Of a DNA stretch of 64,000 nt, positions 9,009 to 27,565 are shown piece by piece. The DNA comes from a virus. A program made the translations under genes and the position numbers. Each line of letters begins with the position of its first letter. Position 1 is the first letter of the stretch. The notes under the pieces are model-generated. The model was not told the DNA's origin and made no database searches. It was given only the letters and a program-made list of their open reading frames with translations. The stretch lies in the IMG/VR virus record IMGVR_UViG_3300032893_000028, positions 9,972 through 73,971 of that record. One strand, given 5' to 3'.

Positions 9009-11036
9009 ATGGCCGCACGAGTCACAGCGCTCACCGTCAACGTCGGGACCGCGCAAGAGCTCGAGGTAGCCCAGGGCGAGGACCGCGACTTCCAGCTCCT
9101 GTTCAAGGACGGCGGCGTCGCGGTCGATATGACCGGCGCGCTCGCCGTCGTCCTGTCGGTGCGCGACGCGCAGGGCGTCCTCCTTTTCGCCCGCATGTAC
9201 ACGGGCTTCGTCGGCGGTGACCCGACGAGCGGCAACGTCATCTTCTCCGTCCGCTCGACGGACACGATCGAGAAGTCCGCCGGGCCGTATACGGCCGACG
9301 TCGTCCTCACCCGCTCGGACAGCTCGCGCGAGCAGCTCCTCGTCTCGTCCCCCTTCGTCGTCCTCACGTCCGAATCCCTATTCGCCGACGTCGTCACCAC
9401 GCCGCCGGCCGTGCCGCTCGTCTTCGGCCTCAACTGGCTCGCCGGCTTCTGGTCGGGCGGGACGTCCGGCTACAACCTCAACGACGCGGTGCAGGCGTAC
9501 GATCCGACGCTCGGCGCCACCGCCGTGTCGACCTTCCGCGCCACCGCGCAGGGCATCACCCACGCACCGATCAACGCCAGCCTGCTCCAGGTAGCGACGG
9601 GGTGGGCCTACGTTGGCCAGCACGGCGGCGCGGGCGCCACCGGGCCGACCGGTCCGCGCGGCGCGACGGGGCTGGGGACCACGGGCGTGACCGGGCCGAC
9701 GGGCCCGGCCGGCGTCACCGGCGCGACGGGGCCTACCGGCCCGCGGGGCAACACGGGTCCGACGGGCGCCGCCGGCCCTACCGGTGTCACGGGTGCGACG
9801 GGGCCGACTGGCCCCGCCGGGGCCACCGGCGCCACGGGTCCGACCGGTGCGCGCGGCGCCACCGGGGTCACCGGCGCGACGGGTCCGACGGGTCCGGCCG
9901 GCGTCACGGGCGCGACGGGACCTACCGGCGCCCGAGGAGCGACGGGCCCGGCGGGGGCCACAGGCGTCACGGGCGCGACGGGACCCACCGGGCCGCAGGG
10001 CGGCGTGGGACCCAAGGGCAACACCGGGCCCGCCGGTCCCGCGGGGGCCACCGGCGCTACAGGTCCGACCGGACCGCAGGGTGCCGCGGGCGCGCGCGGC
10101 AACACGGGGCCTACCGGACCGGCCGGCGCCACGGGGGCCACCGGACCTACGGGACCCGCGGGCTCCGTGGGCGCGCGCGGCAACACCGGCCCGACCGGGC
10201 CGGCGGGGGCCACCGGCGCAACGGGCCCGACTGGGCCCCAGGGCGCCACGGGGCCCGCCACCATCAACTTCACTGGATCGCCGACGTCGTTCGTCGCGCC
10301 CGGCGGCATGATCGTCGCCTCGCCTACGTCGCTGTCTCTGGGCATCGCCGGCGACGGGCCGACCGGGCTCGCCACGCTCTTCGTCACGGCCCAGCGCATG
10401 CGCATGGCGCAGGTCGCCGGGGTGAGTTCGCTCGTCAACCCGGCCTGGCAGATCGTGGGCGCCTCGCACCGCCTCGCGCCGTCGGGCACCGAGATCTTCG
10501 ACGTCAACATCGCGCTCAACGCCACGGTCGAAATCCTCGGCGGCACGGTCTCGCAGAACCGCTCGTTCATCCTGAGCCCGCGCACGATCGGCTTCGCCTC
10601 GGGCAGCTCGGGCACCGTGAACATGGCGGCCGCGCTCGCCATCAATGGCGCGCCTATCCCGGGCACCGGGGCGGCCTTTCTCGACTCGGCGGCGTTGTGG
10701 GTGCAGACGGGCATGGCCCGTCTCGACGACCGGCTCAAGATGGGCGCGTCGGGTACCAAGCAGCTCTGGGCGGGCTCGCTCTTCCCGGGCGCCGCCAACC
10801 AACCGCTGGCGATCGGCCCGACCAATACGGCCTGGCTCGGCCTCGGGCCCACCAGCGCCGCGCTCGGCTTCTTCGGCGTCTCGGGCTGCTTCCAGCCCTC
10901 GGGCGCCGGCGTCACGGGCGGCGCCACCGGCACCACCTTCTTCGACGCCCGCTCCAACGGTGGCACGGGTAGCCAGTACTACACGCACGCCGACCTCGTC
11001 CTCGTCTTCAAGCGTCTCGGCCTACTGGCCACGTAG
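9009..11036 (+). CDS. Collagen-like fibre protein 1 (BppU-like N-terminus, long G-X-T tract)
   Basis: '[22 protein letters not shown]' head; GPT/GAT/GVT/GNT triplets at ~9633-10257. Confidence 0.85.
9633..10257 (+). repeat. Collagen triplet repeat (roughly 70 Gly-X-Y, Y mostly Thr)
   Basis: Direct translation. Confidence 0.9.
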
Positions 11037-11097
11037 CCCACAGCGCGAAAATTTTCGCCTTGCGCTGATTCTGCGCGCCGTGACACATTCGAGTCAC

Positions 11098-11457
11098 GTG
11101 GCGCCGTTTCCAGATTTTCTCGACGAGAAAGAAGACTATGAGGGGGCGGACCTCACCAAGAACAAGGTCGTGCACGTCCGGCTGCTCCCCATTACGTGGG
11201 TGTGGGTGCGATACGAGGCGCGGCGCTGCAAGCTGCGGCCCTCCGAGTGGGTGCGCGAGGCCATCCTCAACTACGACGATGAGGCCGCCACCGATTTGAT
11301 CATCAAGGACAAGGTGCTGCACGTGCGCGTGGACAGCGAGCAGTGGGCGCACCTGCAGAAGGCGGCCCGGGGGGCGGACCGGCGCGCCGCCGACGTCATC
11401 CGCCGGGCCATCAACCAGCGGCTGCTCGCCAGCGGCGACGACAAGGGGAAGAAATGA
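11098..11457 (+). CDS. Tandem ribbon-helix-helix DNA-binding protein
   Basis: Two repeats: KNKVVHVRL...SEWVREAI and KDKVLHVRV...ADVIRRAI; GTG start. Confidence 0.7.
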   Translation: MAPFPDFLDEKEDYEGADLTKNKVVHVRLLPITWVWVRYEARRCKLRPSEWVREAILNYDDEAATDLIIKDKVLHVRVDSEQWAHLQKAARGADRRAADVIRRAINQRLLASGDDKGKK

Positions 11458-14231
11458 GCATCGAGCTCTCGATCGCGATCATCGCCAAGGACGAGGAGCA
11501 GAATCTGGACGCGGCCCTCGCCTCCGTCAAGGGGTGCGCCGACGAGATCATCGTCGTCGACACGGGCTCGACCGACAACACGACGGCGGTGGCCGAGCGC
11601 CACGGCGCGCGCGTGGCGCTGTTCACGCCCGAGACCGACCCCGACGCGTTCTTCCGCGACGACGAGGCGACCTGCGCCGCCTTCGGCGTGCCGCCGCCGT
11701 ATTCGGGCGAGGTCATGCTGGGGGACTTTGGCGCCGCCCGGCGCAAGTCCTTCTCGCTGGCGCGCGGCGAGTTCGTCTACTGGATGGACTCGGACGACGT
11801 GGTCGAGGGGGCGCCGAACCTGCGCGGCATCGTGCAGCAGATGCGCGCGGCCAACCTGGACCTCGGCTTCCTCGCCTACGACTACGCGCGCGACGCCCAG
11901 GAGCGGACCTTCTACCGGCAATGGCGCGAACGCGTCGTGCGCGCCGGCGCCGCCGTGTGGGTCAACCCCGTGCACGAGGTGCTCATGCCGACGCGCCCGG
12001 TGCAGTCGGCGCGCTTCGAGGGTGTGCTCAACGTCCACCGGCGCAAGGTCGACCGCAAGTCGGTGCCCAACCGCAACTACAAGATCCTTCTCCGCCAGCT
12101 CGCGCGCGACCGGGCGACCGGCGCCGTGGTCGACCCGCGCACGCTCTTCTATCTCGGGCAGGAGGCGCGCTGGATCGAGCCGCACAGGTCGCGTGAGTTC
12201 TACGAGGACTACCTCAAGCGATCAGGCTGGTGCGAGGAGCGCGCGGCGGCGCACGTGGCGCTCGGCTCGATGTACGAGTTCGGCCAATTCGGCGGAACCC
12301 CCGAGGAGTCCTACGCCAAGGCCGATATGCACTTCGCCGCGGCGGCGGCGGAGATGGCCGACAACCCCGACGGGTTCTTCGGGCTGGCGCGCATCGCGTA
12401 CCTGCGCGGACGTTACGCCGACTGCGTCTCGTACACCGAGCGGGCGCAGAAGATCGGCAACACCGAGTCCATGCTTGGCGCCAACCCGCTCGACCGCACC
12501 TACCGCCCGCACGTCTACCTCAACCACGCCCTGGCTAAGCTCGGCCGAACCGAGGAGGCGATCGCGAGCTGCGAGGCCGCGCTCAAGGTGTGCCCCGAGG
12601 ACCCGGGCGTCCCCGGCGGCGCGCCGGGCATGATCAAGCACAACCTCGCCGTCTACCAGGCCGAGCTCGCCGCGCGCCGCGCGCCGGCTGCGCCCGCGCC
12701 CCAGAAGGCCATGGTCGAGTTCACCAAGTTCGAGGACCTCGACGCGCCGCCCGTGCAGCAGAACCCCGACGCCTATGTGATTTACGCCATGCAGCTCTGG
12801 AAGCAGTGCGCGGCGTGCGGCGACGAGGCGGGCGCGCGCGGGGCGGTGGCGGCGGCGCGCTGGACGGGCGACGCGGTGGTCGAGCGCATGCGCGCGGCGA
12901 CGGAGCGGCGATGGCCGGCGCGCAATTCCCACATGGGCCCGACGCTCGATAGCTTCCTATGTGAAGAAGGAATCAAGGACGATGTCGACAAGCTAACGAA
13001 GATGAAGCTCGATGAAGTGAAGCTCTACGAGGCACGTGAAATCGTTCGGCAGTACAAAACCAACGATAGGCAGCGCGTCGCCTTCTGGGTCGGCCCCTCG
13101 GTCGAGCCCTGGGATCCGAACACGCCGAACACGCGCGGCATCGGCGGCAGTGAGACGGCGTGCGTCGAGCTGGCGCGCGAATTGGCCGCGCTCGGGCATG
13201 AGGTGACGGTCTACGGCGATTTACCGAATGGTGCGGCGCACCCGGTCGGGTACTCGATCGGCTTCAATGGCGTGCACTATGTCCATTGGCAGAACGCCCG
13301 CGCGCCCATCGAGTGCGACGTCTTCATCTCCTCGCGCCAGGCTGCCATCATGGAGCGCCCCGACGACGTGCGCGCGAGGGTCAAGCTTCTTTGGGTGCAC
13401 GACGTCAACGTCGGCCCCGACTCGCCGCAGATGCAGCGCTGGCTCCTCCGCTTCGACCGCGTCCTGTGCCTGAGCGAGTGGCACCGCGGGTACTTCCTAT
13501 CGTGCTACCCCGGCCTCGACCCGGCCAAGGTGCTCGTCACGCGCAACGGGATCGATCCTGCGCGCTTTCGAGTGAAGGGCTTCTCCGATGATGAAGGATT
13601 GCTGTTCAAGCAGAACCATCTCGTCTTCTCGTCGTCGCCCAACCGTGGCCTCGACACGCTCGTGCTCAACTTCCCGCACATCAAGGCGCGCGTGCCCGAC
13701 GCGGAGCTACACGTGATGTATGGGTTCGACACGTGGGAGGCGTTCGCGCGAGCGCGCGGCGACCAAGGCGAGCTCGAGCAAATTCGGCAGTTCAAACAAT
13801 TCCTGAGCGACCGCGCGCATCCGGGCAGTGGCATTCATCTACACGGACGAGTCTCGCAGCAGGTGCTCGCGGAAGCGCTCATGCGCGCCAAGATTCGACC
13901 GCACTGGACGCAGTTCACCGAGACGTCCTGCATCTCCATGATGGAAGCGATGGCGGCCGGCTGCGTGCCCATCGTCTCGCGCGTCGCCGCTCTCCCCGAG
14001 ACGGTGAAGCACGGCGTGTTCGTGGATACGCCGCAGCAATTCGTCGACGAGTGCGTGCGCCTCTTGACCGACGAAAACTACCGTCGCCCGATCGCGGAAG
14101 CGGGCCGGCAATACGCGCTCGCCAACTTGTCATGGAAGTCTCTGGCGGCGGAGTGGTCGGAGATGTTCAAGCGAGTCGATGGCGAGCTGGCGATGGACCC
14201 GCTGCCAAAGTACATGGAAGTTGGAAAGTGA
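11454..14231 (+). CDS. Multidomain glycosyltransferase GT2 + TPR + GT4
   Basis: 'IIAKDEE', 'VDTGSTD', 'WMDSDD', 'VHE', 'PRTLFYLGQE' TPRs, 'GIGGSE', 'SSPNRGL', 'ETSCISMMEAMAAGC'. Confidence 0.9.
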   Translation: MSIELSIAIIAKDEEQNLDAALASVKGCADEIIVVDTGSTDNTTAVAERHGARVALFTPETDPDAFFRDDEATCAAFGVPPPYSGEVMLGDFGAARRKSFSLARGEFVYWMDSDDVVEGAPNLRGIVQQMRAANLDLGFLAYDYARDAQERTFYRQWRERVVRAGAAVWVNPVHEVLMPTRPVQSARFEGVLNVHRRKVDRKSVPNRNYKILLRQLARDRATGAVVDPRTLFYLGQEARWIEPHRSREFYEDYLKRSGWCEERAAAHVALGSMYEFGQFGGTPEESYAKADMHFAAAAAEMADNPDGFFGLARIAYLRGRYADCVSYTERAQKIGNTESMLGANPLDRTYRPHVYLNHALAKLGRTEEAIASCEAALKVCPEDPGVPGGAPGMIKHNLAVYQAELAARRAPAAPAPQKAMVEFTKFEDLDAPPVQQNPDAYVIYAMQLWKQCAACGDEAGARGAVAAARWTGDAVVERMRAATERRWPARNSHMGPTLDSFLCEEGIKDDVDKLTKMKLDEVKLYEAREIVRQYKTNDRQRVAFWVGPSVEPWDPNTPNTRGIGGSETACVELARELAALGHEVTVYGDLPNGAAHPVGYSIGFNGVHYVHWQNARAPIECDVFISSRQAAIMERPDDVRARVKLLWVHDVNVGPDSPQMQRWLLRFDRVLCLSEWHRGYFLSCYPGLDPAKVLVTRNGIDPARFRVKGFSDDEGLLFKQNHLVFSSSPNRGLDTLVLNFPHIKARVPDAELHVMYGFDTWEAFARARGDQGELEQIRQFKQFLSDRAHPGSGIHLHGRVSQQVLAEALMRAKIRPHWTQFTETSCISMMEAMAAGCVPIVSRVAALPETVKHGVFVDTPQQFVDECVRLLTDENYRRPIAEAGRQYALANLSWKSLAAEWSEMFKRVDGELAMDPLPKYMEVGK

Positions 14232-14728
14232 GACCGACAGTAGACGAACGCTTCGACGCTAAATGGATACCAGAACCAAATACTGGGTGCTTTCTTTGGT
14301 TCGCTGCGCGCGACAAGGATGGTTACGGTATTTTCTGGGATGGCGAGAAGGACGCAAAAGCGCATCGTCATGCTTTAGAGAAAACAGGGGTTCATATTCC
14401 TGCGAATAAGCTGGTTTGTCATCGATGCGACACGCCTGAATGCGTCAACCCGGAGCATCTGTGGATCGGCACGGCAGGAGACAATAACCAAGATGCGGCG
14501 CGTAAAGGCCGTTCCGCGAGTGGAAATCGAAACGCTTCACGCGCGCGACCAGAAACGCGCCCGCGTGGCACTTCGCACTATATGGCCAAGCTCTCCGCGA
14601 ATGATGTCTTAGAGATTCGTAGACGTTTCGATGCGGGTGAAGCGCATAACTCAATAGCTCGTGACTTCGGCATCGGACGCAATAACGTCAGCGAAATCGG
14701 TCGCCGTAAGACCTGGAGGCATCTATGA
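14228..14728 (+). CDS. HNH homing endonuclease
   Basis: 'PNTGCFLW..DGYG', 'AHR', 'VCHRCDTPECVNPEHLWIGT..DN'; lower GC than flanks. Confidence 0.9.
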   Translation: MRPTVDERFDAKWIPEPNTGCFLWFAARDKDGYGIFWDGEKDAKAHRHALEKTGVHIPANKLVCHRCDTPECVNPEHLWIGTAGDNNQDAARKGRSASGNRNASRARPETRPRGTSHYMAKLSANDVLEIRRRFDAGEAHNSIARDFGIGRNNVSEIGRRKTWRHL

Positions 14729-15789
14729 GAATCCTCATCACCGGCGGCCTCGGCTGCATCGGCTCGCAGATCGCGCGCTCGTATCTCGACGAGAGGCACG
14801 AGGTCGTTCTCATTGACTCGTGCGAGGAAGCGCGCAACGAATGGATTTATCAAAAATTCATAAATTACGCCGATCAAACTACCGTGTATGTCGGACGCAT
14901 GGAGCATCGGGATACGGAATCGTGGATACATCAGATATTGCCTTCATGCGACGCTGTCATCCACGCCGCCGCGTCCACCGGCATCCCGCACTCGGCCTTG
15001 CACCCGGACGACGACTGGGCCTCGAACGTCGACGCCACCAAGGTGCTGCTCGACGCGCTCCGCGAGCGCCCCGTGCCGACGGTGGTGCTCTCTAGCGTGA
15101 AGCCTTATCGCACGACTTTCGGAGGCCCGGTCTGCGAATCTATCGACGGAGGGGGCATTCGTTTGCGCATGAACGCGTCGCAAGCGGACGAGATGCAAGC
15201 CCACGGCGGCCTCCGCGAGGACGACCCACTCGAGCCCGACGAGCCCTACGCCGCGTCGAAGGCGGCGCAGTCCATGCTCGCGATGGCCTGGGCGCGGTCG
15301 TACGACTTGCCCATCGTCACGCTGCGCTGCTCCAACCTCTACGGCCCGGCGCCGTGCCACGGCCCGCGCCATGGCTGGCTGACGTGGTTCTGCATCGCCG
15401 CCGCCATCGGCCGACCCATCGAAGTGCAGGGCGGTGGCGCGCAGGCGCGCGACATGCTTTTCGGCTCGGACGTCGCCGCGGCGTGCCGGGTGGCGCTCGC
15501 CAACGCGCCTGCGCTCGCCGGCAAGGTCTTCAACATTGGCGGCGGGCGCGCGAACGTGACTAGCGTGCGGCGCATGGCCACCAAGATCCAGGGCATGACT
15601 GGGTGCGAGGTGGTCGAGGGTCCCGGGCGCAGGCACGAGGATCAGCTCGTCTTCGTCGACCACTCGCGCTTCACGGAGGCGACGGGGTGGCGGCCGCTGG
15701 TCGACGTCGAGGAGGGTTCCGACCGCGTGCTTGCCTGGGCGGAGGAGAACGCGGATGAGCTCAAGAAGGTCTACGAGGGGGTCAAGTAG
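14725..15789 (+). CDS. NAD-dependent NDP-sugar epimerase/dehydratase
   Basis: TGGLGCIGS, HAAA, YAASK, NLYGP, RDML. Confidence 0.9.
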   Translation: MRILITGGLGCIGSQIARSYLDERHEVVLIDSCEEARNEWIYQKFINYADQTTVYVGRMEHRDTESWIHQILPSCDAVIHAAASTGIPHSALHPDDDWASNVDATKVLLDALRERPVPTVVLSSVKPYRTTFGGPVCESIDGGGIRLRMNASQADEMQAHGGLREDDPLEPDEPYAASKAAQSMLAMAWARSYDLPIVTLRCSNLYGPAPCHGPRHGWLTWFCIAAAIGRPIEVQGGGAQARDMLFGSDVAAACRVALANAPALAGKVFNIGGGRANVTSVRRMATKIQGMTGCEVVEGPGRRHEDQLVFVDHSRFTEATGWRPLVDVEEGSDRVLAWAEENADELKKVYEGVK

Positions 15790-15957
15790 ATGCGTGTTCT
15801 CGCGCTCTCGTATAACGCCCGTGGCGAGATGCTGAGGCGCTCGGGCGACAAGCTCATCGTGGTCCGTCTCGACAATGGCAAAACGGTCTATGAATCCGTC
15901 GCGCGATGTATCCCACAAGACGACGAGGCCAAGAAATTTCTAGCGGAGGGGAAATGA
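15790..15957 (+). CDS. Hypothetical 55-aa protein
   Basis: Frame abuts the epimerase stop and overlaps the next start. Confidence 0.5.
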   Translation: MRVLALSYNARGEMLRRSGDKLIVVRLDNGKTVYESVARCIPQDDEAKKFLAEGK

Positions 15958-16757: not shown

Positions 16758-16976
16758 ATGCGTCGCATCACGATCGCCGGCGAGAAGTGGTGGTGGGCCG
16801 TTCGTAAAGAGCCCGATTATTCGGAATACACGCCCTGTAATTTGCGCACTATGACGCTCCAGGGGCCCGACGGATATCGTCGATCGTTTACGCTCGATTA
16901 TGATACGTCGCCTGTGACGCCCTCAAAGGTGGCGAATATCATCCGCGAGAAGAAAGCGACTTGGCCATGCGTTTGA
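16758..16976 (+). CDS. Hypothetical protein
   Basis: 72-aa ORF tightly packed in the operon. Confidence 0.5.
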   Translation: MRRITIAGEKWWWAVRKEPDYSEYTPCNLRTMTLQGPDGYRRSFTLDYDTSPVTPSKVANIIREKKATWPCV

Positions 16977-17575: not shown

Positions 17576-17755
17576 ATGGGTCGACATAAATCGAAAAATC
17601 CGAAGGAAACGCACATCGGCATTCGTGTCGATAAGGCGCTGGACGCGGCCATCACGGCCGAAGGGAAGCGAATCGAGCGCGAGTTAGGACTCACGCTCAA
17701 GAAGTCGGACATCGTGCGGATGCTGATTCAGCGCACATTGGGAGCTAAGCGATGA
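17576..17755 (+). CDS. Ribbon-helix-helix DNA-binding protein (59 aa, absent from ORF track)
   Basis: MGRHKSKNPKETHIGIRVDKALDAAI...KKSDIVRMLIQRTL. Confidence 0.7.
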   Translation: MGRHKSKNPKETHIGIRVDKALDAAITAEGKRIERELGLTLKKSDIVRMLIQRTLGAKR

Positions 17756-20001
17756 GTCCGTTTCTCAGCGTGATTGTGCCGACCTACCGCGCCGGCGGAA
17801 TCGACGTACTGCTCGACGCGCTCGCCGCGCAGAGCTACACCGACTTCGAGCTGGTGCTCGTCGACATGCTCAAGCGCCACCGCGCCGAGAAGGTGGCCGC
17901 GGAGGCGCGCGACCGGTTCCTGCGCGTCGTCCACGTCGAGCCCAAGCCCTCGCCGTTTCCGATCGCCAGCTACTGCGCCTGCGCCAACGTGGGGCTCGCG
18001 GCGGCGTCGGGCGAGGTGGCGCTCTTCCTGGCCGACTACTCGCGGCCGACGCCGGGCGCGCTGGCGGCGCACGCCGCCTTCCATCGCGCGGACAAGACGG
18101 CCGGGCGCGCCGGGCTCATGATGCCGCACCGGTACGTGGCGCTCGAGCTGGAGCCGCGCTTCAATCTGCGCTACGCAGCCTCGGATTGGGAGCGATACGC
18201 GCGTGATATCGAGCGCGGATATCTCGACCCGTGGATGATCTCGATCGGCCAGCCCTCCGAGCGCGCCGACGCGGGGCACGAGGTCGACGGCGGCGGGCGC
18301 GCGACGGCGGACGCCGACCCCAAGCTGCGCATGGCGGCCGGGCCGATCGACGCCAACTTCTTCCACGCCAAGTGCGAGTCGGTCCGGCTCGAGCGTTGCC
18401 TGGAGGTCAACGGCTTCGACGAGGACCTCGACGGCGGCCACGGCTACCAGGACTCCGACTTCGCGGCGCGGCTGTCGCTCAAGGCCGGCGTGCAGTGGAC
18501 GCTCGACCCGTCGCTCGCGTGCGAGATCGCCAACCCGCGCGGCGTGTTCCCGATGCTGCGCCGGCTGCGCGACGTGCGCGAGAACGAGGCGATCTGGCGG
18601 AGCAAGGCCGCCGCGGGCTACCCGCCGACCAACCCGCGGTGGAGCCTGCGCGAGCGCCGTGCTATTTTCCTGTCCCAGGGTTCCGGCGTCGTCGAGGGTC
18701 CACCCCCGACCTCCCCGCCGGCGGCGCCGGAGCCCCCTTTGACCTTCAGCATCAAGATGCGCGTCAATATGTCGCCGGAAGTCGTGGATGACCTCCGCGA
18801 GCGCGCCGCGAAGCGAGGAACGACACTGGACGAGGTCATGAAGACGGCCGGGGTTCCGCCACGCAGACTGCGCGTGGCGATGGTCTACGGCGAGTTCTCG
18901 ACGGCCATCCACGGCCCCTTCGACTTCGCCAAGCTGGGCGACGCGGCGCTCACGGGCAGCGAGGGCTCGTTCTTCAACCTCGCCCGGTCGCTGGCCGAGC
19001 GCGGCCACGAGGTGGTCGTGTTCGCCCCGGCCGCCGCCGCGCACCACCACGAGTCGGGCGCGCACATGCTGCCCATCAAGGCGATCCGCGGGCTGCCCTC
19101 CGTCCCCGGGCTCGACGCGGTGGTGGCGTGGAACGAGCCCGACTACCTGGCCCACGCGCCCAAGGGCGTCCTACGCGTCGTCAACCAGCAGCTCAACGAC
19201 TGGGGATACTGCAAGCCTGATTGGGGGAAGCTCGTCGACCACTTCGTTTTCCCGTCAAAATCATCGCAGGGAAATCACGAACAGTATATCGGTGACAGTC
19301 TTCGGCATCCGAAGTACGCCAGCGTCATCCCCAACAGCGTCGACCTCGACCTCTTCGAGCGCCACGCCGTCGAGCGCGTCCCGCACCGCGTCGTCTACTG
19401 CTCCTCGCCCGACCGCGGGCTGCACCACCTCCTGGCGATGTGGCCGGCGGTGCGCACGCGGGTGCCCGACGCCGAGCTCAAGATCTTCTACCGCATCGAG
19501 CCATGGCTGCAAGCCAACCTGCTCAATCCTAACGAGATCGGCCAGCGGGCGCGCTTCGTCGAGGAAGCGCTGCGGCGGCTCGGCCCGGCCCGGGGCGTCG
19601 AGGTCGTTGGCCCCGTGCCCAACCGCGAGATGGCGCGCCAGCTCCGCATGGCCTCCGTCCTGGCCTACCCGTGCGACCCGGTGCGCTACACGGAGGGCTT
19701 CGGCTGCTCGGTCCTCGACGCGTGCGCGGCGGGCTGCCTGCCGATCATCTCCGATGCCGACGCGCTGGCGGAGGTGCACGAAAGCGGAAGTGAAGTGATT
19801 GCGGGCAGACCAGGTGATCACATGCAAATCTGGATCGACACCATCACCAAGCATTTAGGGTACATCCCGCCGGAACATCCGAAGGGCGCGCCGTATTACA
19901 CCGATCGAGGAGATATCATGTGCGTGGCGTCGGTGCACGCCCAGACCCACAGCCGCCAGAAGGTGGCGGAGATGTGGGAGCGCCTCCTGTCGCGAACGTA
20001 G
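17752..20001 (+). CDS. Multidomain glycosyltransferase GT2 + GT4
   Basis: 'SVIVPTYR', 'FLADY', 'NGFDE...GYQDSD', 'TGSE', 'SSPDRGL', 'EGFGCSVLDACAAGC'. Confidence 0.9.
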   Translation: MSPFLSVIVPTYRAGGIDVLLDALAAQSYTDFELVLVDMLKRHRAEKVAAEARDRFLRVVHVEPKPSPFPIASYCACANVGLAAASGEVALFLADYSRPTPGALAAHAAFHRADKTAGRAGLMMPHRYVALELEPRFNLRYAASDWERYARDIERGYLDPWMISIGQPSERADAGHEVDGGGRATADADPKLRMAAGPIDANFFHAKCESVRLERCLEVNGFDEDLDGGHGYQDSDFAARLSLKAGVQWTLDPSLACEIANPRGVFPMLRRLRDVRENEAIWRSKAAAGYPPTNPRWSLRERRAIFLSQGSGVVEGPPPTSPPAAPEPPLTFSIKMRVNMSPEVVDDLRERAAKRGTTLDEVMKTAGVPPRRLRVAMVYGEFSTAIHGPFDFAKLGDAALTGSEGSFFNLARSLAERGHEVVVFAPAAAAHHHESGAHMLPIKAIRGLPSVPGLDAVVAWNEPDYLAHAPKGVLRVVNQQLNDWGYCKPDWGKLVDHFVFPSKSSQGNHEQYIGDSLRHPKYASVIPNSVDLDLFERHAVERVPHRVVYCSSPDRGLHHLLAMWPAVRTRVPDAELKIFYRIEPWLQANLLNPNEIGQRARFVEEALRRLGPARGVEVVGPVPNREMARQLRMASVLAYPCDPVRYTEGFGCSVLDACAAGCLPIISDADALAEVHESGSEVIAGRPGDHMQIWIDTITKHLGYIPPEHPKGAPYYTDRGDIMCVASVHAQTHSRQKVAEMWERLLSRT

Positions 20002-20013
20002 TAGAATCGCCCC

Positions 20014-23000
20014 ATGGCGATCGTCCTGCCTCGTCTGACGGGTGTTCTCGAGGACGGGACGGGCTCGCTCGCGCAGTCCACCCAGCAGCGCGCGTTCCAG
20101 CGCGCCGCGTCCGGCACCATCTCCATCACCTGCTTCCGCGCCAGCGGCGCGCGCTTCAACCTCACCGGCGGCGCGCTCGTCTGGACGGTGGCGGACGGCA
20201 AGGGCGTCGAGATCTTCGCCCGCGCCGCCGACTTCGACGACGCCGCCAGCGGCGAGGCTACCTTCACCTTCGTCACCGAGGACACCGACCAGGCCGGCGG
20301 CGTCTCCAACTCCAACATCATCGGCCAGCACGACGTCGCCTTCGTCGACAACGCGGGCACCTACGGCGTCCCGGGGGCGATCTACCAGCTCGTCCCGCCG
20401 TCGATCCTGTACCTGTCCGATCTGCTCCTGCCCATCCCGCCCGTGGTCACGCCGCTGCCGCCGCAACTCCCCTTCTCCCAGGGCGCCACCGGCGCGCCGG
20501 GGCCAACGGGGCCCGCGGGTGTGACCGGCCCGGCCGGCCCTACGGGCGCCGCGGGCCCACAGGGCGCGACCGGCCCCGCCAACGGACCGCAGGGGCCGAC
20601 CGGACCGCAGGGCGCTACAGGCCCGACAGGGCCGGCGGGTACCAATGGAACCACCGGCGCGACGGGACCGACGGGGCCGCAGGGTCCTACAGGCGCCGCC
20701 GGTCCCACCGGCGTCACGGGCGCGACCGGCCCGACCGGCCCCGCAGGCGCCAACGGTGCGCAAGGCGCCACCGGCCCGACTGGCCCGCAGGGTCCAACCG
20801 GGACGCCCGGACCGACCGGCGTCACGGGGGCGACAGGTCCAACCGGCCCCGCCGGCGCACAAGGAGTGACAGGACCCGCGGGGCCGCAGGGCGCAACGGG
20901 CCCAACAGGGCCGCAAGGGCCGACAGGACCGCTTGGCGGCGGACCTCAGGGCGTTACCGGCGCAACGGGGCCGACAGGACCGCAGGGAGCCCAAGGCGTC
21001 ACGGGCGCGACGGGCCCGACGGGTCCCCAGGGAACGCAAGGCGTCCAGGGCGTCACCGGGGCGACGGGGCCGACCGGCCCGGCCGGCAGCACGGGCCCGG
21101 CGGGGCCGAACAGCCCGGCCTCCGACAGCACAGTCGCGCTCGGAACCACCAATCTGCGCTGGCTCGGCTTATACAATGCGGGCCCGCTCGGCGGCGGCTG
21201 GACGCAGGTGGCCATGGGCGCCGCCAGCGGCTGGACCGCCAGCGCGCGCAGCTACGGCGTGGGCGTCACGGGCGCCTCGGGCGACCGCATCGTCCAGCTC
21301 CCCGCGGCGGCGCAGTTCTACGCCGGCCAGGAGCTACGCGTGCGCGACGTCGGCGGTGGCGGCAACGTCCTCGCCGTCAAGTCGGCCGGCGCCGACCGCA
21401 TCAACGGCGCCACCGGGGTCACGTCTACCGCGGCCTACGCGCAGTGGCTGCTCGTCTCCGACGGCGCCTCCAACTGGTACGCGTCGCTCGGCCCGACGGG
21501 GCCGACCGGCCCGCAGGGGGCCACGGGCGCGACGGGTCCCACGGGCCCGGCGGGGACGACCGGCGCCACCGGCCCGACCGGACCCCAGGGCGCGCAGGGC
21601 GTCACGGGTGCGACCGGCCCGACGGGTCCGCAGGGGAGCCAGGGTGCGCAGGGCGTCACGGGGGCGACGGGCCCTACCGGCCCGGCTGGTGTGCAGGGGG
21701 TCACAGGCGCCACGGGTCCGACGGGGCCGCAGGGAGCCACGGGCCCGATCGGCCCGCAGGGCGCGACGGGGCCGGCGGGCGGCGGTGGCGGAGGCACGCC
21801 GACCACGCTCCAGGGCGCGTACAACGCCGGGCCCTCGGGGCCGCAGGCGATCGCGCTCGGGCCGTCGAGCGCGGGCCTGTACGGCGTGCTCATCCAGGAC
21901 ATGACCGGCGGGACGACGGGGCCGATCTTCGGCGTCGGCGGCCCGAGCGGCACGACCGGCTACCTGGTGGTGTACCCGACCGGCGCCTTCGCACAGGGTC
22001 TCGTGGTCGGCACTGGCAACAACTACGGTCAGTTCAACGCGGTGCCCGGCAGCAACACGGGGTACCCGAGGATCCTGCTCGCCACCGACAACATCTCGGC
22101 GGTCACCATGCTCGAGCTCGTCAACTCGCTCTACGCGACGACGAGCCAGTTCGCGCAGGCCGGCAACCTGGCGCTCTTCTCGGCCGGAGACATCTTTCAG
22201 ATCTACACGCAGAACGGCGGCGTAGCGCTCCTCGACCTTCGAACGCTGACCGCCTCCTTCAACGGCGCGGTGCAGCCGGGCGCGGACGCGGGCGCCGCGC
22301 TGGGCGCAACTCTTCGGCGATGGAACGGCCTCTACAACGTGGGGCCCTTATCCGCCGCGCTGTCCGTCAAGGCCTCGCCGACGGGGACGCCGTACGTCCT
22401 GGCATCCACCGACCACTTCATCGGGTTGACCGGGGCGTCGGGCACGAGGAGCGCGTTCCTGCCCGCGGCCAGCAGCGTTCCCGCCGGTCAATTCATCCGC
22501 GTGCAGGACGTGGCCGCCAACCCCAACGGCTTCCTGCTGGCGACCGCGACGGGGGCGACGGCCGACCGCATCAACGGCGCCACGGGGCTCACGCTGGCGG
22601 CGCGCTACGGCGGGATGATGGTCGTCTCCGACGGCGCCACCAACTGGTACGCCGCCGACATGGCGGGCTCGCTCCAGGACGCCTACGCCAACGGGGCGAG
22701 CGGGCCCGCTGTCATCGCGATCGGTCCGACGGGCTGGTACGGCGTTCTCATCCAGGATATGGGCAGCGGCGTAGCCACCGGACCGATCTTCGCCGTGCAG
22801 AATGCGCTCGGCACCACCAACTATCTGCGCGTGCAGGCCACCGGCGTTGACACCGTCGGGTATTTCAAGGGCAAGCGCCTCGACTTGAGCGTCGGCAAGG
22901 CGATCGGAACCAACAGCTTCACCGGCGCGCGGTTCGGCAACAGCGCCGGGAGCATCACGGGGTATACGGGGACCGACTCGGCCGGGCAATTCACGATCGT

Positions 23001-23241
23001 GGTCGGCGTGACCGGCTACACCATCAATCCCCAGATCACCATGTTCTACGCCGACGGGCCGCGCGCGACGCCCCGCTACATATCGAAGCTGCGCGCCTTC
23101 TCGCCCACCACCTTAGCGCCATATCTCGTCGACAACGAGACACCCACGTCCGTCACATGGACGCTGATAGGCAACGGGGCGCAGATGGGCGCGCCCACGG
23201 GCCTCGGCTTCTACACCATTGAGTACATGGGCCTGGGGTGA
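20014..23241 (+). CDS. Collagen-like fibre protein 2 (two G-X-T tracts, duplicated globular domains)
   Basis: Collagen tracts at ~20482-21110 and ~21490-21780; repeated '[18 protein letters not shown]' and 'LQ.AY..G.SGP..I..GP...YGVLIQDM' modules. Confidence 0.85.
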
Positions 23242-23290
23242 GGTGATTCTGCCTTGCGCAGTCGGCGCTGCGCGTGTTGAATTGTGACAC

Positions 23291-23793
23291 ATGCAAACGA
23301 TCGCGCTGACTCGCGGACATGTAGCCTTAGTTGACGACGAGGACTACGAAAAACTCCAGAAATGGAAGTGGTTTGCGCAGCCGTCCTCAACATCCTGGTA
23401 CGCCAAACGTGATGGGCGTACCAGGGGGAAGGCATCGTTTATATGCATCGTGTCATTTGTGAAGCGCCTCGAGGTGTCGAAGTCGATCATATCGATGGTA
23501 ACGGTTTGAATAATTGCAAAACTAATTTACGATTAGCTTCTCGTCGAGAAAACGCTAGAAATACTCGAATATTTGTGCCCAAAAAATCGCGATTCAAGGG
23601 AGTTTCTTGGTTCACGCGCGATCAGTGTTGGCGTGCGTACATTTGCGATAAGTCAGTACAATTCGGAAAGTCGCCGCAGCGCCATCTCGGCTATTTCGAT
23701 TCTGAATTAGAAGCCGCGCGAGCGTACGATATCGCTGCCGTCAAATCCTTCGGCGTTTTTGCGGCCGTCAATTTCCCGTCGGAGAAAGCATGA
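23291..23793 (+). pseudogene. HNH-AP2 endonuclease split by a frameshift near 23420-23445
   Basis: N-terminal 'LTRGHVALVDDEDYE..KW' in one frame; 'MHRVI...VDHIDGNGLNN..NLR' and AP2 'HLGYFDSELEAARAYD' in another. Confidence 0.75.
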
Positions 23794-24488
23794 GTCTCAA
23801 TGTAGTTTGCGTTCATGCCAAACACGGGTTTCGATTCGCCGAGGTGTCCGGTACGCCGGCCGATCACGCGAGTCATTGGTCCTTCGACGACGAGCAGGAG
23901 GTGCGCGACCGCTGGTGGCGCGCCCAGCCGGGCGAGACCGTGCTCGACGTCGGCGCCGCGTTCGGCAGCTACGCCCTGCCCGCGCTGGCGGCCGGCGCGC
24001 GCGTCGTGTGCTTCTCGCCGGCGGACTTCGACACGGAGCTGCTCCGACACAATCTCTCGCTCAACCCCGAGCTGGCGCGGCGCTGCCTCGTCGTGCGCGA
24101 CGGGCTGCACGAGCGCGACGGCTGGTTCGACCCGGATCATTCGCACTTTACTGACGACGTCGGACCTCTTGGAATTCCGAGTCCGAAGGGCTACCAATGG
24201 CTCCGCGTGCGCTCGCTCGACTCATGGCTCGCCGAGCGGCCTGGCGTCGACCACGTCGACCTCGTCAAGATCGACGTCGAGGGCGCAGAGCTGGGCGTAC
24301 TCCGGGGCGCCGCGGGCATGCTGCGCCGCTGGCGCCCGCGGCTGCTGGTCGAGCTGCACGAATTCCACGTGCCGGACATGGCCGCGCGGATCTGGGCGTT
24401 CCTGGAGAGCCTTGAGCTCGGCTACACCGTCGAGGGGCCGGTCAAGCACTGCGCGGTCTCCCACGCGTTCTACGAGGTGAAGCGGTGA
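23790..24488 (+). CDS. FkbM-family methyltransferase
   Basis: 'VLDVGAAFG', 'LVKIDVEGAELGVLRGA', 'LLVELH'. Confidence 0.9.
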   Translation: MSLNVVCVHAKHGFRFAEVSGTPADHASHWSFDDEQEVRDRWWRAQPGETVLDVGAAFGSYALPALAAGARVVCFSPADFDTELLRHNLSLNPELARRCLVVRDGLHERDGWFDPDHSHFTDDVGPLGIPSPKGYQWLRVRSLDSWLAERPGVDHVDLVKIDVEGAELGVLRGAAGMLRRWRPRLLVELHEFHVPDMAARIWAFLESLELGYTVEGPVKHCAVSHAFYEVKR

Positions 24489-26017
24489 AGCCTACCGTCT
24501 GCCTCATCACGCCGCCGTCGGTGTTCCTGCTCGACGAGCGCGTCTTCCCCAACCTGGGGATCCTCAAGATCGCCGCCGCGCTGGAGGCGCGCGGGTACCC
24601 AGTAGAGCATCTCGACCTCGACGGCGTCTCCAACTTCGAGCAGGCCGTCGAGGCGCACTTCGAGGCCTCGTCGGCCGAGTACGTGGGCATCACCTGCACC
24701 ACGCCGCAGCTCCCCGCGGCGGTGCGGATCGCGCGCGCCATCCGCCACGTGCGCGGCGTCGCCGGGCCGCAGCTCATCGTCGGCGGCCCGCACCCGACCG
24801 TTACGCTGGCGGCGGTGAAGAAGGCCGGCGCTGGCGGCCGCGCGGGGCGCGCGCTCGAGCGGCTCAAGCAGGAGTTCGACGTCGTGGTGGCCGGCGACGG
24901 CGAGGAGTCGATCTTCTCGGCAATCGGCGCCTCCTACGGCAGCGTCATCGACGCCGACGACGCCAAGTCGCCGCTCTTCCTGCTCGGCAAACGGCTCGAG
25001 CAGGCGCCGTGGCCGGCGAGGCACCTGCTCGACCTCGACAGCTACCGCTATAAGATCGACGGAGTGCCCGCGTCCACGCTGGTCGCGCAGCTCGGCTGCC
25101 CATTCCGCTGCACGTTCTGCTCGGGGCGCTCGTCGCCGATGCTGCGCCGCGTGCGCTTCCGACCGACCGAGGACGTGCTGGCGGAGGTCGAGCACCTCCA
25201 CGTGCGCTACGGCTTCCGGGGCTTCATGTTCTACGACGACGAGCTCAACGTGTCGAAGGGCATGATGGACCTGATGCGCGGCATGGCCGCGCTCGCCAAG
25301 AAGCACAATACTGAGTGGCGCCTGCGCGGCTTCGTCAAGGCCGAGCTGCTCACGCAGGAGCAGGCCGACGCCATGCACGAGGCCGGCTTCCGCTGGCTGC
25401 TCTGCGGCTTCGAGAGCGGCAGCGAACGCATCCTGGCCAACATCGAAAAGCAGGCCACCGTCGCCGATAATGATCGCGCCGTCGAGTACGCGCGCCGCGC
25501 CGGGCTCAAGGTCAAGGCCCTCATGTCGCTCGGCCACGCCGGCGAGTCGGCCGAGACGATCGCCGACACCGAGGCGTGGCTGCGACGCGTGCGCCCCGAC
25601 GACTTCGACGCCACCGTGATCACACCCTACCCGGGCTCGCCGTACTACGACGAGTCGGTGCCGTCGGAGTTCGTCTGGAACGACCGCTCGCGGTTGGAAA
25701 CTGCCAACAAGCTCCAGGCATGCTGGACGTACACGCACCCGAAGTCGGGCGATCGGTTGCACATGGTCGAGCTTGACTACGCCGAGACGGTTGACTTCTA
25801 CAAGGGCGCGCCCGGCGAGTACCGCGCGTACACGTGGACCGACCATCTTTCGTCCGCGGACCTCGTGCGGATGCGCGATGAGCTGGAGACGCGCGTGCGC
25901 GCCGACCTCGGCATCCCCTACAACGCCGGCGCGCCCGGGATCCAGTTCGAGGCGTCGATGGGTCAGACGAAAAAACTCCCGCCGTCGATTTTGAGGTCGA
26001 CGGCGGGAATGTTATGA
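24485..26017 (+). CDS. B12-binding radical SAM enzyme
   Basis: 'PNLGILKIAA', 'VGGPHPT', 'GDGEE', CPFRCTFC, 'FYDDE', 'GFESGS', 'PYPGS'. Confidence 0.9.
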   Translation: MKPTVCLITPPSVFLLDERVFPNLGILKIAAALEARGYPVEHLDLDGVSNFEQAVEAHFEASSAEYVGITCTTPQLPAAVRIARAIRHVRGVAGPQLIVGGPHPTVTLAAVKKAGAGGRAGRALERLKQEFDVVVAGDGEESIFSAIGASYGSVIDADDAKSPLFLLGKRLEQAPWPARHLLDLDSYRYKIDGVPASTLVAQLGCPFRCTFCSGRSSPMLRRVRFRPTEDVLAEVEHLHVRYGFRGFMFYDDELNVSKGMMDLMRGMAALAKKHNTEWRLRGFVKAELLTQEQADAMHEAGFRWLLCGFESGSERILANIEKQATVADNDRAVEYARRAGLKVKALMSLGHAGESAETIADTEAWLRRVRPDDFDATVITPYPGSPYYDESVPSEFVWNDRSRLETANKLQACWTYTHPKSGDRLHMVELDYAETVDFYKGAPGEYRAYTWTDHLSSADLVRMRDELETRVRADLGIPYNAGAPGIQFEASMGQTKKLPPSILRSTAGML

Positions 26018-26200
26018 CGTCTTTTTTTCCTCCGCCTCGACCAGCTTTGCTATCGCTTCTCTAATTCGTTTGTCCGCCAATCCTCTAATTGGCTCTCCAG
26101 CTATCCATCGACGAACACTGCGATAGTCTACGCATGCGGCTTCAGCGATTTCTAATTCGCGTTCACGACTAATGATCCGCTTAGGAATTTTCTTCATCAT
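26012..26200 (-). CDS. Small HTH-like protein
   Basis: 'EIAEAACVDYRSVRRWIAGEP'; own promoter upstream. Confidence 0.65.
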   Translation of the reverse strand: MMKKIPKRIISRERELEIAEAACVDYRSVRRWIAGEPIRGLADKRIREAIAKLVEAEEKKTS

Positions 26201-26218
26201 CCCGCCTTTCTTCGCGCA

Positions 26219-26259
26219 AACCTAATGTTGCCTATCGTGTTCGTCAACCAAATTCTACT
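26219..26259 (-). promoter_or_regulatory. Promoter motif copy 2 (TTGACG-17-TAGGTT)
   Basis: AGAATTTGGTTGACGAAC. Confidence 0.65.
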
Positions 26260-26294
26260 TTACCCGCGCGCGCCCTGCCGCTAGTCTCGTCTCC

Positions 26295-26603
26295 ATGCGA
26301 ACCGTCATCATGTACACGTGCCTCACGCTCTCGTCGGTCATTCTCATTCTCGTGGCCTGCGCCGCGCTGCTCGGCTGCGCGCCGGCGCCCGACGGCCGAG
26401 TCGCGCCGCTGGCGGTGCGCCCGCCGTCGCTGTGCGCGGACGGGGGCGGCTGCCCCGAGGGGCTCCTGTGCGCCGACGACGGCCACTGCGGCGAGCCGTG
26501 CGGGGTCAACTTCGCCTGCCCGCTCGGCTACTACTGCTCGGCGCGCTTCCCCGGCCACGACTGCCTGCCGCTGTGCCTGCGCTCCGACGCGGGGTGCCAG
26601 TGA
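26295..26603 (+). CDS. Cys-rich predicted lipoprotein
   Basis: Hydrophobic N-terminus, LLGC lipobox, repeated C-x-CPxGxxC units. Confidence 0.6.
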   Translation: MRTVIMYTCLTLSSVILILVACAALLGCAPAPDGRVAPLAVRPPSLCADGGGCPEGLLCADDGHCGEPCGVNFACPLGYYCSARFPGHDCLPLCLRSDAGCQ

Positions 26604-27565
26604 AGGCTCGCCGACTCGCCCTCCTCACCGGCGGCGCCGGGTTCCTGGGCTCGCACCTCGTCGATCGGCTGCTCGCCGACGGGCGCGACGTCGCGGTCGT
26701 GGACGACTTCTCGACCGGGCGGCACGCCAATCTGGAGCACCTGCCCGTCGGCGCGATCAAGGTCCTGGAGCTCGACGTGCGCTCGCCCAACGCGGCCCGG
26801 CTCATGGCCTCGTTCGAGCCCGACGAGGTCTACCACCTGGCCTGCCCGGCCAGCCCGCCGGCGTACCAGCGCGACCCGCAGAAGACGATCGAGACCTGCT
26901 TCCTCGGCACGCGCGCCGCGCTCGACGCGGCCGAGCGCTCGCGGGCGCGCTTTCTCATGACTTCGACCTCGGAGATCTACGGCGACCCGCCGGCGAGCCA
27001 GCACCCGCAGCGCGAGGAGTACTGGGGCAACGTGAATCCTCGGGGATCTCGATCCATGTACGACGAGGGCAAGCGCGCCGCCGAGGCGCTATCGTGGTGC
27101 TACGAGCAGCGCGGCGTGCAGGTACAGGTGGCACGCATCTTCAACACCTACGGCCCGCGCATGGCCCCGGACGACGGCCGCGTCGTGAGCAACTTCGTGT
27201 GCCAGGCGCTCGCCGGCCAGCCGCTGACGGTCTACGGCGACGGGTCGCAGACGCGCTCGCTCTGCTACGTCGCCGACACGGTCGACGCGCTCGTGCGCCT
27301 GATGCAGATGCCGCACCCGATCGGCCCGGTCAACGTCGGCAATCCGGCCGAGGTGACCATGCTGGAGCTGGCGGAGGCCGTGGCGACGGCGATCGGGGCG
27401 GACCTCGCGGTCGACTACCTGCCCCTCCCCGCCGACGATCCCAAGCGCCGGCGGCCGGACATCGGTCGCGCGGGGCGGTTGCTGGGGTGGCGGCCGACGA
27501 CGCCGCTGGCGGTGGGCTTGGCGAGGACGGTGGATTACTTCAGAGAGGCGACGCGGAGGGGCTAG
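26600..27565 (+). CDS. uxs: UDP-glucuronate decarboxylase (UDP-xylose synthase) family
   Basis: TGGAGFLGSH, HLACPASP, TSTSEIYGDP, YWGNVNP, YDEGKR, RIFNTYGPRM, DGRVVSNF. Confidence 0.9.
   Translation: MKARRLALLTGGAGFLGSHLVDRLLADGRDVAVVDDFSTGRHANLEHLPVGAIKVLELDVRSPNAARLMASFEPDEVYHLACPASPPAYQRDPQKTIETCFLGTRAALDAAERSRARFLMTSTSEIYGDPPASQHPQREEYWGNVNPRGSRSMYDEGKRAAEALSWCYEQRGVQVQVARIFNTYGPRMAPDDGRVVSNFVCQALAGQPLTVYGDGSQTRSLCYVADTVDALVRLMQMPHPIGPVNVGNPAEVTMLELAEAVATAIGADLAVDYLPLPADDPKRRRPDIGRAGRLLGWRPTTPLAVGLARTVDYFREATRRG

Follow-up and report, generated by a model that had tools for sequence, protein, structure and literature searches.

Organization of the fibre and glycosyltransferase cassette

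The viral record IMGVR_UViG_3300032893_000028 is a complete genome of 73,971 bp with direct terminal repeats and ~68% G+C, and the window analysed here is its 64,000-nucleotide stretch from base 9972 to base 73971, whose numbering is used throughout except where another locus is named. At 9009–27565 the window carries a cassette containing two collagen-like tail fibre genes (Col1 and Col2), two large glycosyltransferase genes (GT_A and GT_B) and a set of genes for nucleotide-sugar, methyltransferase and radical SAM enzymes (Table 1); it is a candidate system for O-glycosylation of the phage's own fibres. The + strand codes for the major head protein and for tail sheath, tube, tape measure and baseplate proteins, and the phage is therefore of the contractile-tailed (myovirus) type. 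The cassette closes the tail/baseplate operon, coming directly behind its sheath, tube, tape-measure and baseplate genes; all cassette genes are on the + strand, and past 27562 the genes flip to the other strand. A megablast search against cultured phages gives no match, and no cultured phage has a terminase more than 34% identical. The relative L011 is ~80% identical and has the same gene order apart from the HNH genes.

Table 1. Genes of the cassette, with window coordinates and the matches on which each assignment is based.
Feature	Coordinates	Strand	Evidence
Col1, collagen-like tail fibre 1, 675 aa	9009..11036	+	Pfam Collagen 8.2e-29; PHROG tail-fibre families
Two-repeat ribbon-helix-helix (RHH)-like small protein	11080..11457	+	Pfam NikA-like 9.5e-6 (just below cut-off); RHH_1 0.018
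GT_A, GT2-TPR-GT4 glycosyltransferase, 925 aa	11454..14231	+	Pfam GT2, TPR, GT4
HNH homing endonuclease	14228..14728	+	Pfam HNH_3 4.2e-5 (just under cut-off); weaker His-Me zinc-loop match
Extended short-chain dehydrogenase/reductase (SDR), NDP-sugar epimerase or dehydratase, 354 aa	14725..15789	+	Pfam Epimerase 1.5e-40
Short nucleotide-sugar dehydrogenase homologue, 267 aa	15954..16757	+	PDB 4a7p 9.6e-36
Class I SAM methyltransferase, 202 aa	16967..17575	+	Pfam Methyltransf_11 3.1e-5
RHH-like small protein, 59 aa	17576..17755	+	Sequence pattern only
GT_B, 749 aa: diverged GT2-like domain, linker, GT4 domain	17752..20001	+	Pfam GT4 families 2e-9 to 7.6e-8
Col2, collagen-like tail fibre 2, 1075 aa	20014..23241	+	Pfam Collagen 2.2e-37; tail-fibre PHROGs; triplet count
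HNH-AP2 homing endonuclease remnant or insertion	23443..23793	+	Pfam HNH_3 3.1e-9; AP2 1.7e-6 (below cut-off)
FkbM-family methyltransferase, 232 aa	23790..24488	+	Pfam 1.3e-19; TIGR01444 3.3e-22
B12-binding radical SAM enzyme, 510 aa	24485..26017	+	Pfam Radical_SAM 6.8e-25, B12-binding 2.4e-12
UDP-glucuronate decarboxylase (UDP-xylose synthase, UXS) orthologue, 321 aa	26600..27565	+	Human UXS1 2b69/4gll

Thr-rich collagen-like fibres

Col1 consists of an N-terminal domain, 71 G-x-y triplets (residues 203–417) and a 258-aa C-terminal domain. Thr occupies 44 of the 71 Y positions (62%), with triplets that include GAT (19), GPT (15), GPA (10), GVT (6) and GNT (4); Asp and Glu never occur at X, and Arg or Lys is found at 7/71 Y positions. 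The N-terminus and collagen part are 79% identical to those of L011, and the C-terminal domain has been swapped. Col2 has four collagen runs with a total of 103 triplets (Thr at 56 Y positions, 54%; GPT 24, GAT 19) and two copies of a 110-aa globular module (residues 382–491 and 769–881, 46% identity), one behind the first three collagen runs and the other in the C-terminal globular part. The non-collagen parts of Col1 and Col2 hold a further 47 and 76 Thr residues respectively, and Lys is scarce (6 and 7).

BclA, a Bacillus anthracis spore protein, carries a C-terminal C1q/TNF-like trimerising head. Outside its collagen region Col1 has no Pfam match, and the ESM Atlas model of its C-terminal head is of low confidence (pLDDT 0.41) and gives no fold match.

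According to Table 4 of PMC3368898, Thr takes up 8.9% of Y positions in viral collagens and 48.3% in those of Gram-positive bacteria; the former usually abound in charge pairs (PMC3368898). With Thr at 54–62% of Y positions and almost no charge, Col1 and Col2 are therefore BclA-like, and their Thr-richness is real and atypical for viruses. An earlier interpretation made without database searches, referred to here as the sequence-only reading, had described two such fibres, mostly of GPT, GAT, GVT and GNT triplets, around the glycosyltransferases, and both are found as described.

GT_A and its relatives

GT_A begins 417 nt beyond the end of Col1. Its 925-aa start is that given by the database protein P0003, the longer open reading frame (ORF) being 962 aa. 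All three domains proposed in the sequence-only reading, GT2, TPR and GT4, are identified by Pfam, the TPR by matches to TPR_2 (2.3e-7) and TPR_1 (7.2e-6) at residues 395–420 of the 962-aa ORF, and the motifs VDTGSTD and DSDD (GT2) and E-x7-E (GT4) are intact. Residues D36, T37, G38, D41, D112, D114 and D115 are invariant among 28 GT_A homologues, and GT_A keeps all of the invariant catalytic columns. The GT4 half shows a distant likeness to MshA/BshA-type retaining enzymes.

A profile of the first 430 positions, built from 24 phage homologues of GT_A's own clade (clade A, below), was searched against the sequences of all solved structures (PDB). Its best enzyme relatives are GmaR (5.7e-39) and two peptide S-glycosyltransferases, SunS (4.6e-23) and the related 7msk (1.8e-18); TPR-repeat proteins, including the TPR region of human OGT, are also matched and are interspersed among the enzymes. 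A scan of bacterial genomes with a narrower profile recovers 14 bacterial loci, none of them from Clostridioides difficile, with a collagen gene adjacent in one. A protein of a Clostridia metagenome-assembled genome (374-aa frame) is aligned by the phage profile over 351 columns, at residues 15–369 (E 6.8e-55), and its gene is 20 nt from a GPT collagen gene with which it is divergent.

The Clostridia protein is similar in size and gene arrangement to SgtA of C. difficile, a 358-aa enzyme with a GT-A domain (residues 1–260) and four TPR (262–358), encoded immediately upstream of bclA3; purified SgtA transfers beta-O-GlcNAc onto Thr of BclA3 GPT/GAT peptides such as VGPTGATGATGADGV (PMC7157674). 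GT_A shares with SgtA a soluble GT-A domain followed directly by TPR, a gene adjoining a Thr-rich collagen-like gene, and GPT/GAT repeats as candidate acceptors, and the SgtA-sized clostridial enzyme aligns end to end with its N-terminal 400 residues. However, GT_A is phage-encoded and has an extra fused GT4, its acceptor would be a tail fibre and not the spore nap, and its island adds UXS, the SDR, two methyltransferases and a B12 radical SAM enzyme. GmaR of Listeria monocytogenes, in which a GT domain and then TPR serve to put GlcNAc onto flagellin (PMC9638930; PDB 22ao), is the closest solved GT2 relative, with a GT domain of ~180–200 residues followed by TPR, and it modifies a cytoplasmic filament protein before assembly, as is proposed for GT_A, although its C-terminus is an anti-repressor rather than a GT4 and its acceptor is flagellin. 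The matches to GmaR, SunS and the SgtA-sized clostridial enzyme together support, by homology, the placement of the GT2-TPR module in the protein/peptide-glycosylating GmaR/SunS/SgtA-like group, in line with the earlier suggestion that enzymes of this type act on protein acceptors.

The GT_A homologues P0015, P0030, P0046 and P0079 carry inteins (PF14890, PF14528, PF13403), so that selfish elements have entered this gene repeatedly in related phages.

Nucleotide-sugar, transferase and tailoring enzymes

The second glycosyltransferase, GT_B, had been read as GT2-GT4. Its GT4 part is firm; the GT2 part falls below the Pfam cut-off (5.6e-4; 20.3 vs 23.3 bits), although it has an NCBIfam EpsD-like match (3.8e-13), and it has LADYS at the expected position of the DxD motif, with no clear DxD. 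The GT_B orthologue in L026 (441 aa) aligns with the GT4 half alone. GT_B is proposed to be a chain-extending transferase.

The NDP-sugar epimerase of the sequence-only reading corresponds to the extended SDR, whose closest solved relatives are CDP-tyvelose 2-epimerase (1.7e-28) and dTDP-glucose 4,6-dehydratases (PDB). The assignment of a UDP-glucuronate decarboxylase likewise holds over the full length of the protein: UXS matches human UXS1 at 1.1e-98 over residues 95–410 of the long ORF (the next family is at 8.7e-48), its true start is at ~26600, and the long ORF opens with 94 codons of Arg-rich filler.

The upstream partner of UXS is less straightforward. The gene that had been called a UDP-glucose dehydrogenase (Ugd) retains two domains, NAD-binding and central, together with the motif of the catalytic Cys (GGTCFPKD), and its residues 40–258 align with residues 81–310 of the 446-residue 4a7p chain. 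Since the alignment ends at residue 310 the UDP-binding C-terminal domain is missing, and the score against TIGR03026 is 151.9 bits for a cut-off of 189.8. The protein thus lacks a defining feature of Ugd, and the proposed Ugd-then-Uxs route to UDP-xylose is uncertain. A split Ugd with the C-terminal domain encoded elsewhere was considered and is ruled out, PF03720 (the domain in question) being absent genome-wide in a search that was positive in 14/14 control genomes. The dehydrogenase is also short in L025 (74% identity) and L026 (61%), and is therefore a stable variant and not a wreck.

Both methyltransferases and the B12 radical SAM enzyme are confirmed by Pfam. The class I methyltransferase is 84% identical in L011 and 59% identical in L023. 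The radical SAM enzyme has its CxxxCxxC motif (CPFRCTFC) at residue 205 and scores far below every NCBIfam equivalog cut-off, the best being the hopanoid-associated HpnJ (97.5 vs 577.6 bits); its matches in PDB include 9ccb (2.4e-18) and AprD4 (1.1e-11), which acts on an aminoglycoside sugar and is the nearest named solved relative. Orthologues 51–54% identical are present in distant phage islands (L031, L032, L041, L047, L053), and ESM Atlas matches have generic names only. Its chemistry is possibly C-methylation, or deoxygenation or rearrangement of a sugar.

The truncated dehydrogenase, the degenerate DxD of GT_B, a frameshifted HNH gene and small ORFs with lower G+C at third codon positions (GC3) could together be taken to mean that some of the genes are decaying cargo, or that the island makes a free or lipid-linked glycoconjugate that is not covalently attached to the virion. 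This is very unlikely, as the short dehydrogenase is conserved in its short form at 61–74% identity, GT_A has no substitution in the catalytic columns noted above, and the gene order is preserved in relatives.

UXS, SDR and methyltransferase genes are also typical of O-antigen and capsule loci, and the island might serve to remodel the surface of the infected host, for instance so as to keep out superinfecting phages. Glycosyltransferases in the fibre region of pelagimyophages have been so read (PMC7029224), and a collagen-less group of related loci (below) is situated near integrase, replication and lysis genes, like moron islands. However, none of the cassette enzymes has a transmembrane segment, and the stretch has no annotated flippase, polymerase, ligase, initiating phosphoglycosyl transferase or lipid-carrier enzyme. 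By sequence, the GT2-TPR module falls with protein/peptide glycosyltransferases, the genes lie between two fibres in a late structural operon, and both glycosyltransferase genes are translationally coupled to their upstream neighbours, all of which make a role at the host surface improbable.

The GT2-TPR-GT4 family across phages

An alignment of 28 full-length GT_A homologues retrieves 316 IMG/VR relatives, of which the best 80 loci were taken with 10-kb flanks. A midpoint-rooted FastTree phylogeny of 59 full-length enzymes (58 from the 80 loci, and GT_A) contains two well-supported clades, clade A with GT_A and 30 other loci, and its sister clade B with 28. The survey for co-occurrence of collagens with GT2-TPR genes that the sequence-only reading had called for separates the two. 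A same-strand collagen ORF is present upstream of the enzyme gene, at a distance of 37–4636 nt, in 20/30 of the other clade A loci and in none of the 28 of clade B. In L038 a collagen ORF of 3965 aa begins the count anew just past the flank, which raises clade A to 21/30 (22/31 with GT_A's own locus). The clade A collagen ORFs are as long as 2340 aa with 569 triplets, and their loci range from 31 to 67% G+C in records of up to 430 kb. Mapped on the tree, the collagen label requires 5 changes, compared with a mean of 17 for shuffled labels, and the linkage of clade A to collagen is far beyond chance.

The clade B enzyme genes have a different neighbour. In 26/28 loci they are 23–967 nt downstream of the major capsid protein gene, with four capsid families represented, and a Manatee Spring podovirus found by tblastn has the same capsid-adjacent arrangement. 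These enzymes are candidate capsid glycosyltransferases and are apparently undescribed. With clade B beside the capsid gene and clade A beside collagen, the whole family is therefore encoded near virion structural genes, and such a shift of neighbour with clade is expected if the neighbour is the substrate. Capsid-linked examples in clade B include L074:8486-12970, L063:8488-13195 and L097:8687-12274 (within L061-L102).

Sugar genes follow the same division. Around clade A enzymes there are SDR genes in 17/30 loci, FkbM in 16/30, UXS in 10/30 and radical SAM in 5/30, compared with none of the first three and a single weak radical SAM match around the 28 of clade B. The order collagen, GT2-TPR-GT4, then UXS, extra GT4s, FkbM and radical SAM recurs in unrelated islands of 34–66% GC. 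The cassette had been thought unusually complete for a phage of this size, a view that the survey overturns: islands with collagen, glycosyltransferase, UXS, FkbM and radical SAM genes occur on anything from ~13-kb fragments to 430-kb records.

The capsid linkage of clade B raises the question of whether virion proteins other than the collagen repeats (globular fibre domains, baseplate, sheath or capsid) are glycosylated by the cassette enzymes. Both fibres have additional Thr residues outside their repeats, and in L023 the fibre gene upstream of the glycosyltransferase has the Col1 N-terminal domain and no collagen repeats. L023 is not a real exception, however, because its contig stops right after GT_B, where the Col2 orthologue would be, and because of that shared N-terminal domain. 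In mycobacteriophages (Freeman et al. 2023, as described in PMC12619734), phage glycosyltransferases place glycans on the C-termini of the phage's capsid and tail tube subunits, and the two systems are alike in that phage-encoded enzymes would serve the phage's own particle. Glycosylation of that type was considered for this phage and rejected: its capsid and tube proteins show no richness in Ser/Thr over their last 40 residues, and a collagen fibre is the candidate acceptor here. The collagen link is moreover particular to clade A and kept across 31–67% GC, and the proven acceptors of SgtA are exactly GPT/GAT repeats. A virion acceptor other than the collagen repeats is therefore unlikely for the cassette enzymes.

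Giant proline-free collagen-like ORFs of the form (G-x-T-G-V-Q)n occur in L067 (2-9820, - strand) and also in L064, L069 and L072; they reach 3273 aa and 969 triplets and lie divergently next to a gene pair into which GT2-TPR and GT4 are split.

A proposed pathway for fibre glycosylation

The cassette is interpreted as a phage-encoded, cytoplasmic system for stepwise O-glycosylation of the phage's own collagen-like tail fibres, with a probability of roughly 60%. This interpretation draws on observed gene content, homologies, conserved linkage and enzyme solubility, and on the dominance in Col1 and Col2 of GPT and GAT, the same triplets as in the SgtA acceptors.

What follows is inferred, from the identity of the acceptor and of the sugars to the sequence of steps and the glycan's role in biology. 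Late in infection both fibres and the enzymes would be made from one structural operon. The TPR part of GT_A would hold unfolded or folding G-x-Thr repeat chains, and transfer of the first sugar to Thr hydroxyls would fall to the inverting GT2 domain of the same enzyme; judging from SgtA and GmaR, this sugar is probably beta-GlcNAc drawn from the host's UDP-GlcNAc. Two to three more sugars could then be added by the retaining GT4 domains of both glycosyltransferases and perhaps by the GT2-like domain of GT_B. UXS would supply UDP-xylose from UDP-glucuronate, which may come from the host or possibly from the short dehydrogenase, and an epimerised or deoxy sugar would come from the SDR. O-methylation of the glycan would be the task of the class I and FkbM methyltransferases, and the B12 radical SAM enzyme would make a C-methyl or otherwise altered sugar. 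The glycan may contain xylose, uronate and methyl groups. Its likely uses are to stabilise a charge-poor, hydroxyproline-free triple helix and to shield the fibres or tune adhesion.

Several points weigh against this interpretation. Adjacency of genes does not identify an acceptor, and the link to SgtA is through the SgtA-sized Clostridia protein as a proxy. The GT2-like domain of GT_B may be inactive, and the short dehydrogenase may not make UDP-glucuronate. The survey counts are not independent events, because many of the loci are related to one another, and 8/30 of the other clade A loci have no collagen. Among these the subclade of L029, L040, L048 and L054 is a real exception: there is no collagen gene anywhere in the complete 60.5-kb genome of L048, and the neighbours in the subclade (L048:7447-12487, L040:1014-6152, L054:8765-12556) are DnaT/DnaB, integrase and DnaA-like, or GH25 lysozyme genes. 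The enzyme family therefore has other uses, and adjacency is evidence and not proof. The sequence-only reading had named homologous clusters independent of collagen genes as telling against it, and this subclade, where the same enzyme occurs with no collagen gene, is in part such a case.

In L048 (7447-12487) the enzyme gene, which has DnaT/DnaB neighbours, overlaps the end of the DnaB helicase gene by 4 nt, and phage glycosyltransferases often act on DNA (bioRxiv 10.1101/2023.12.21.572611). RHH-like genes, of a DNA-binding type, also precede both glycosyltransferase genes of the cassette. DNA was nevertheless rejected as the acceptor and is highly improbable: the complete genome has neither a ThyA-like gene (PF00303), as would form hydroxymethyl-pyrimidines, nor a C5 methylase gene (PF00145), and the controls for both searches were positive. 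TET/JBP (PF12851) also has no match in the genome, a result that is uninformative since its control matched nowhere. The glycosyltransferases known to act on DNA have no TPR and are either GT-A enzymes of the TarP/JGT-like kind or GT-B enzymes resembling T4 beta-GT (bioRxiv 10.1101/2023.12.21.572611), and the cassette sits in a late fibre module.

Relationship to known glycosylation systems

The type of chemistry proposed for the fibres is already known from SgtA/BclA3, BclA, GmaR, mycobacteriophage virion glycans and the collagen enzymes of mimivirus. BclA of B. anthracis is a collagen-like glycoprotein with a rhamnose-anthrose tetrasaccharide (PMC6222408). It resembles the phage fibres in its Thr-rich, charge-poor collagen stalk, and its oligosaccharide ends in an unusual O-methylated sugar, which is a precedent for methylating tailoring enzymes, although BclA is a spore surface protein and carries other sugars. 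Mimivirus glucosylates (galactosyl)hydroxylysine with LH3/GLT25-like enzymes (PMC9546862, PMC12279948, PMC9614988), and like this phage such giant viruses code for collagen-like proteins, glycosylating enzymes and nucleotide-sugar pathways of their own; here, however, the fibres are nearly Lys-free and the enzyme family is unrelated.

Literature searches found no account of phage collagen-fibre glycosylation or of a GT2-TPR-GT4 phage enzyme family, and papers on related phages interpret such genes as modifiers of DNA or of the host surface (the latter in PMC7029224). New here are the fused GT4 form, the family split between capsid and collagen, the recurrent UXS, FkbM and radical SAM partners, the collagen-less subclade and the truncated dehydrogenase. 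To our knowledge, glycosylated phage particles have so far been demonstrated only in mycobacteriophages, on capsid and tail tube.

It is tentatively suggested, at somewhat less than even odds, that the GT2-TPR-GT4 enzymes form a large, so far unstudied family that glycosylates virion proteins in phages and whose clades track their substrates, and that the collagen clade builds complex glycans with pentose, O-methyl groups and possibly C-methyl or deoxy sugars produced by a B12 radical SAM enzyme. Glycan-coated virions would then be widespread among uncultured phages with genomes of 40 kb to 430 kb, many environmental phages would decorate their own receptor-binding fibres or (clade B) capsids with glycans of their own making, and the glycan would replace hydroxyproline in stabilising viral collagen. 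This would matter for how phages recognise hosts and evade antibodies and other binding proteins, and for the folding of collagen that has neither hydroxyproline nor charge pairs. The system is small, soluble and tractable; its enzymes could be useful for glycosylating designed collagen-like materials, and it offers a candidate sugar-modifying B12 radical SAM enzyme.

HNH insertions, small ORFs and flanking features

The two HNH genes are outside the glycan pathway. The gene at 14228-14728 has a GC3 of 0.50 and is missing from L011 and L025, and the HNH-AP2 gene at 23443-23793 has a GC3 of 0.44 and is missing from L011, while the GC3 of genes neighbouring them is ~0.87. Their low GC3 and their absence from the 80%-identical relative with the same gene order identify both as recent insertions. 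The HNH-AP2 gene has its first ~45 codons, from 23291 on, in a different frame; the break, close to a run of G at ~23424-23428, reflects a frameshift or else an error of assembly.

Five small ORFs also lie within 9009-27565. The stop codon of the two-repeat RHH-like gene (11080-11457) overlaps the GT_A start (ATGA), and weak homologues are found at the equivalent place in L025 and L026. The second RHH-like gene (17576-17755; GC3 0.67) has no family match and overlaps the start of GT_B by 4 nt, such that each of the big glycosyltransferase genes is translationally coupled to a small RHH-like upstream neighbour. At 26295-26603 a 102-aa ORF rich in Cys, with a signal of the lipoprotein type (lipobox LVAC) and a GC3 of 0.95, has a stop codon that overlaps the UXS start codon.

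A scan for terminators and promoters gives no signal above shuffled sequences. A perfect-looking hairpin with a 14-bp stem (25975-26010) is located at the extreme end of the radical SAM gene, is scored as a minus-strand terminator, and is followed by a 277-nt gap in which no gene is called. Just upstream of Col1, the gene at 7552-8970 encodes a protein of 472 aa that has a hydrophobic helix at its N-terminus and a C-terminal domain weakly resembling SGNH/GDSL esterases. A homologue of this protein is situated between Col1 and GT_A in L026, and the protein could be a glycan or receptor esterase, or an acyl-transfer enzyme.

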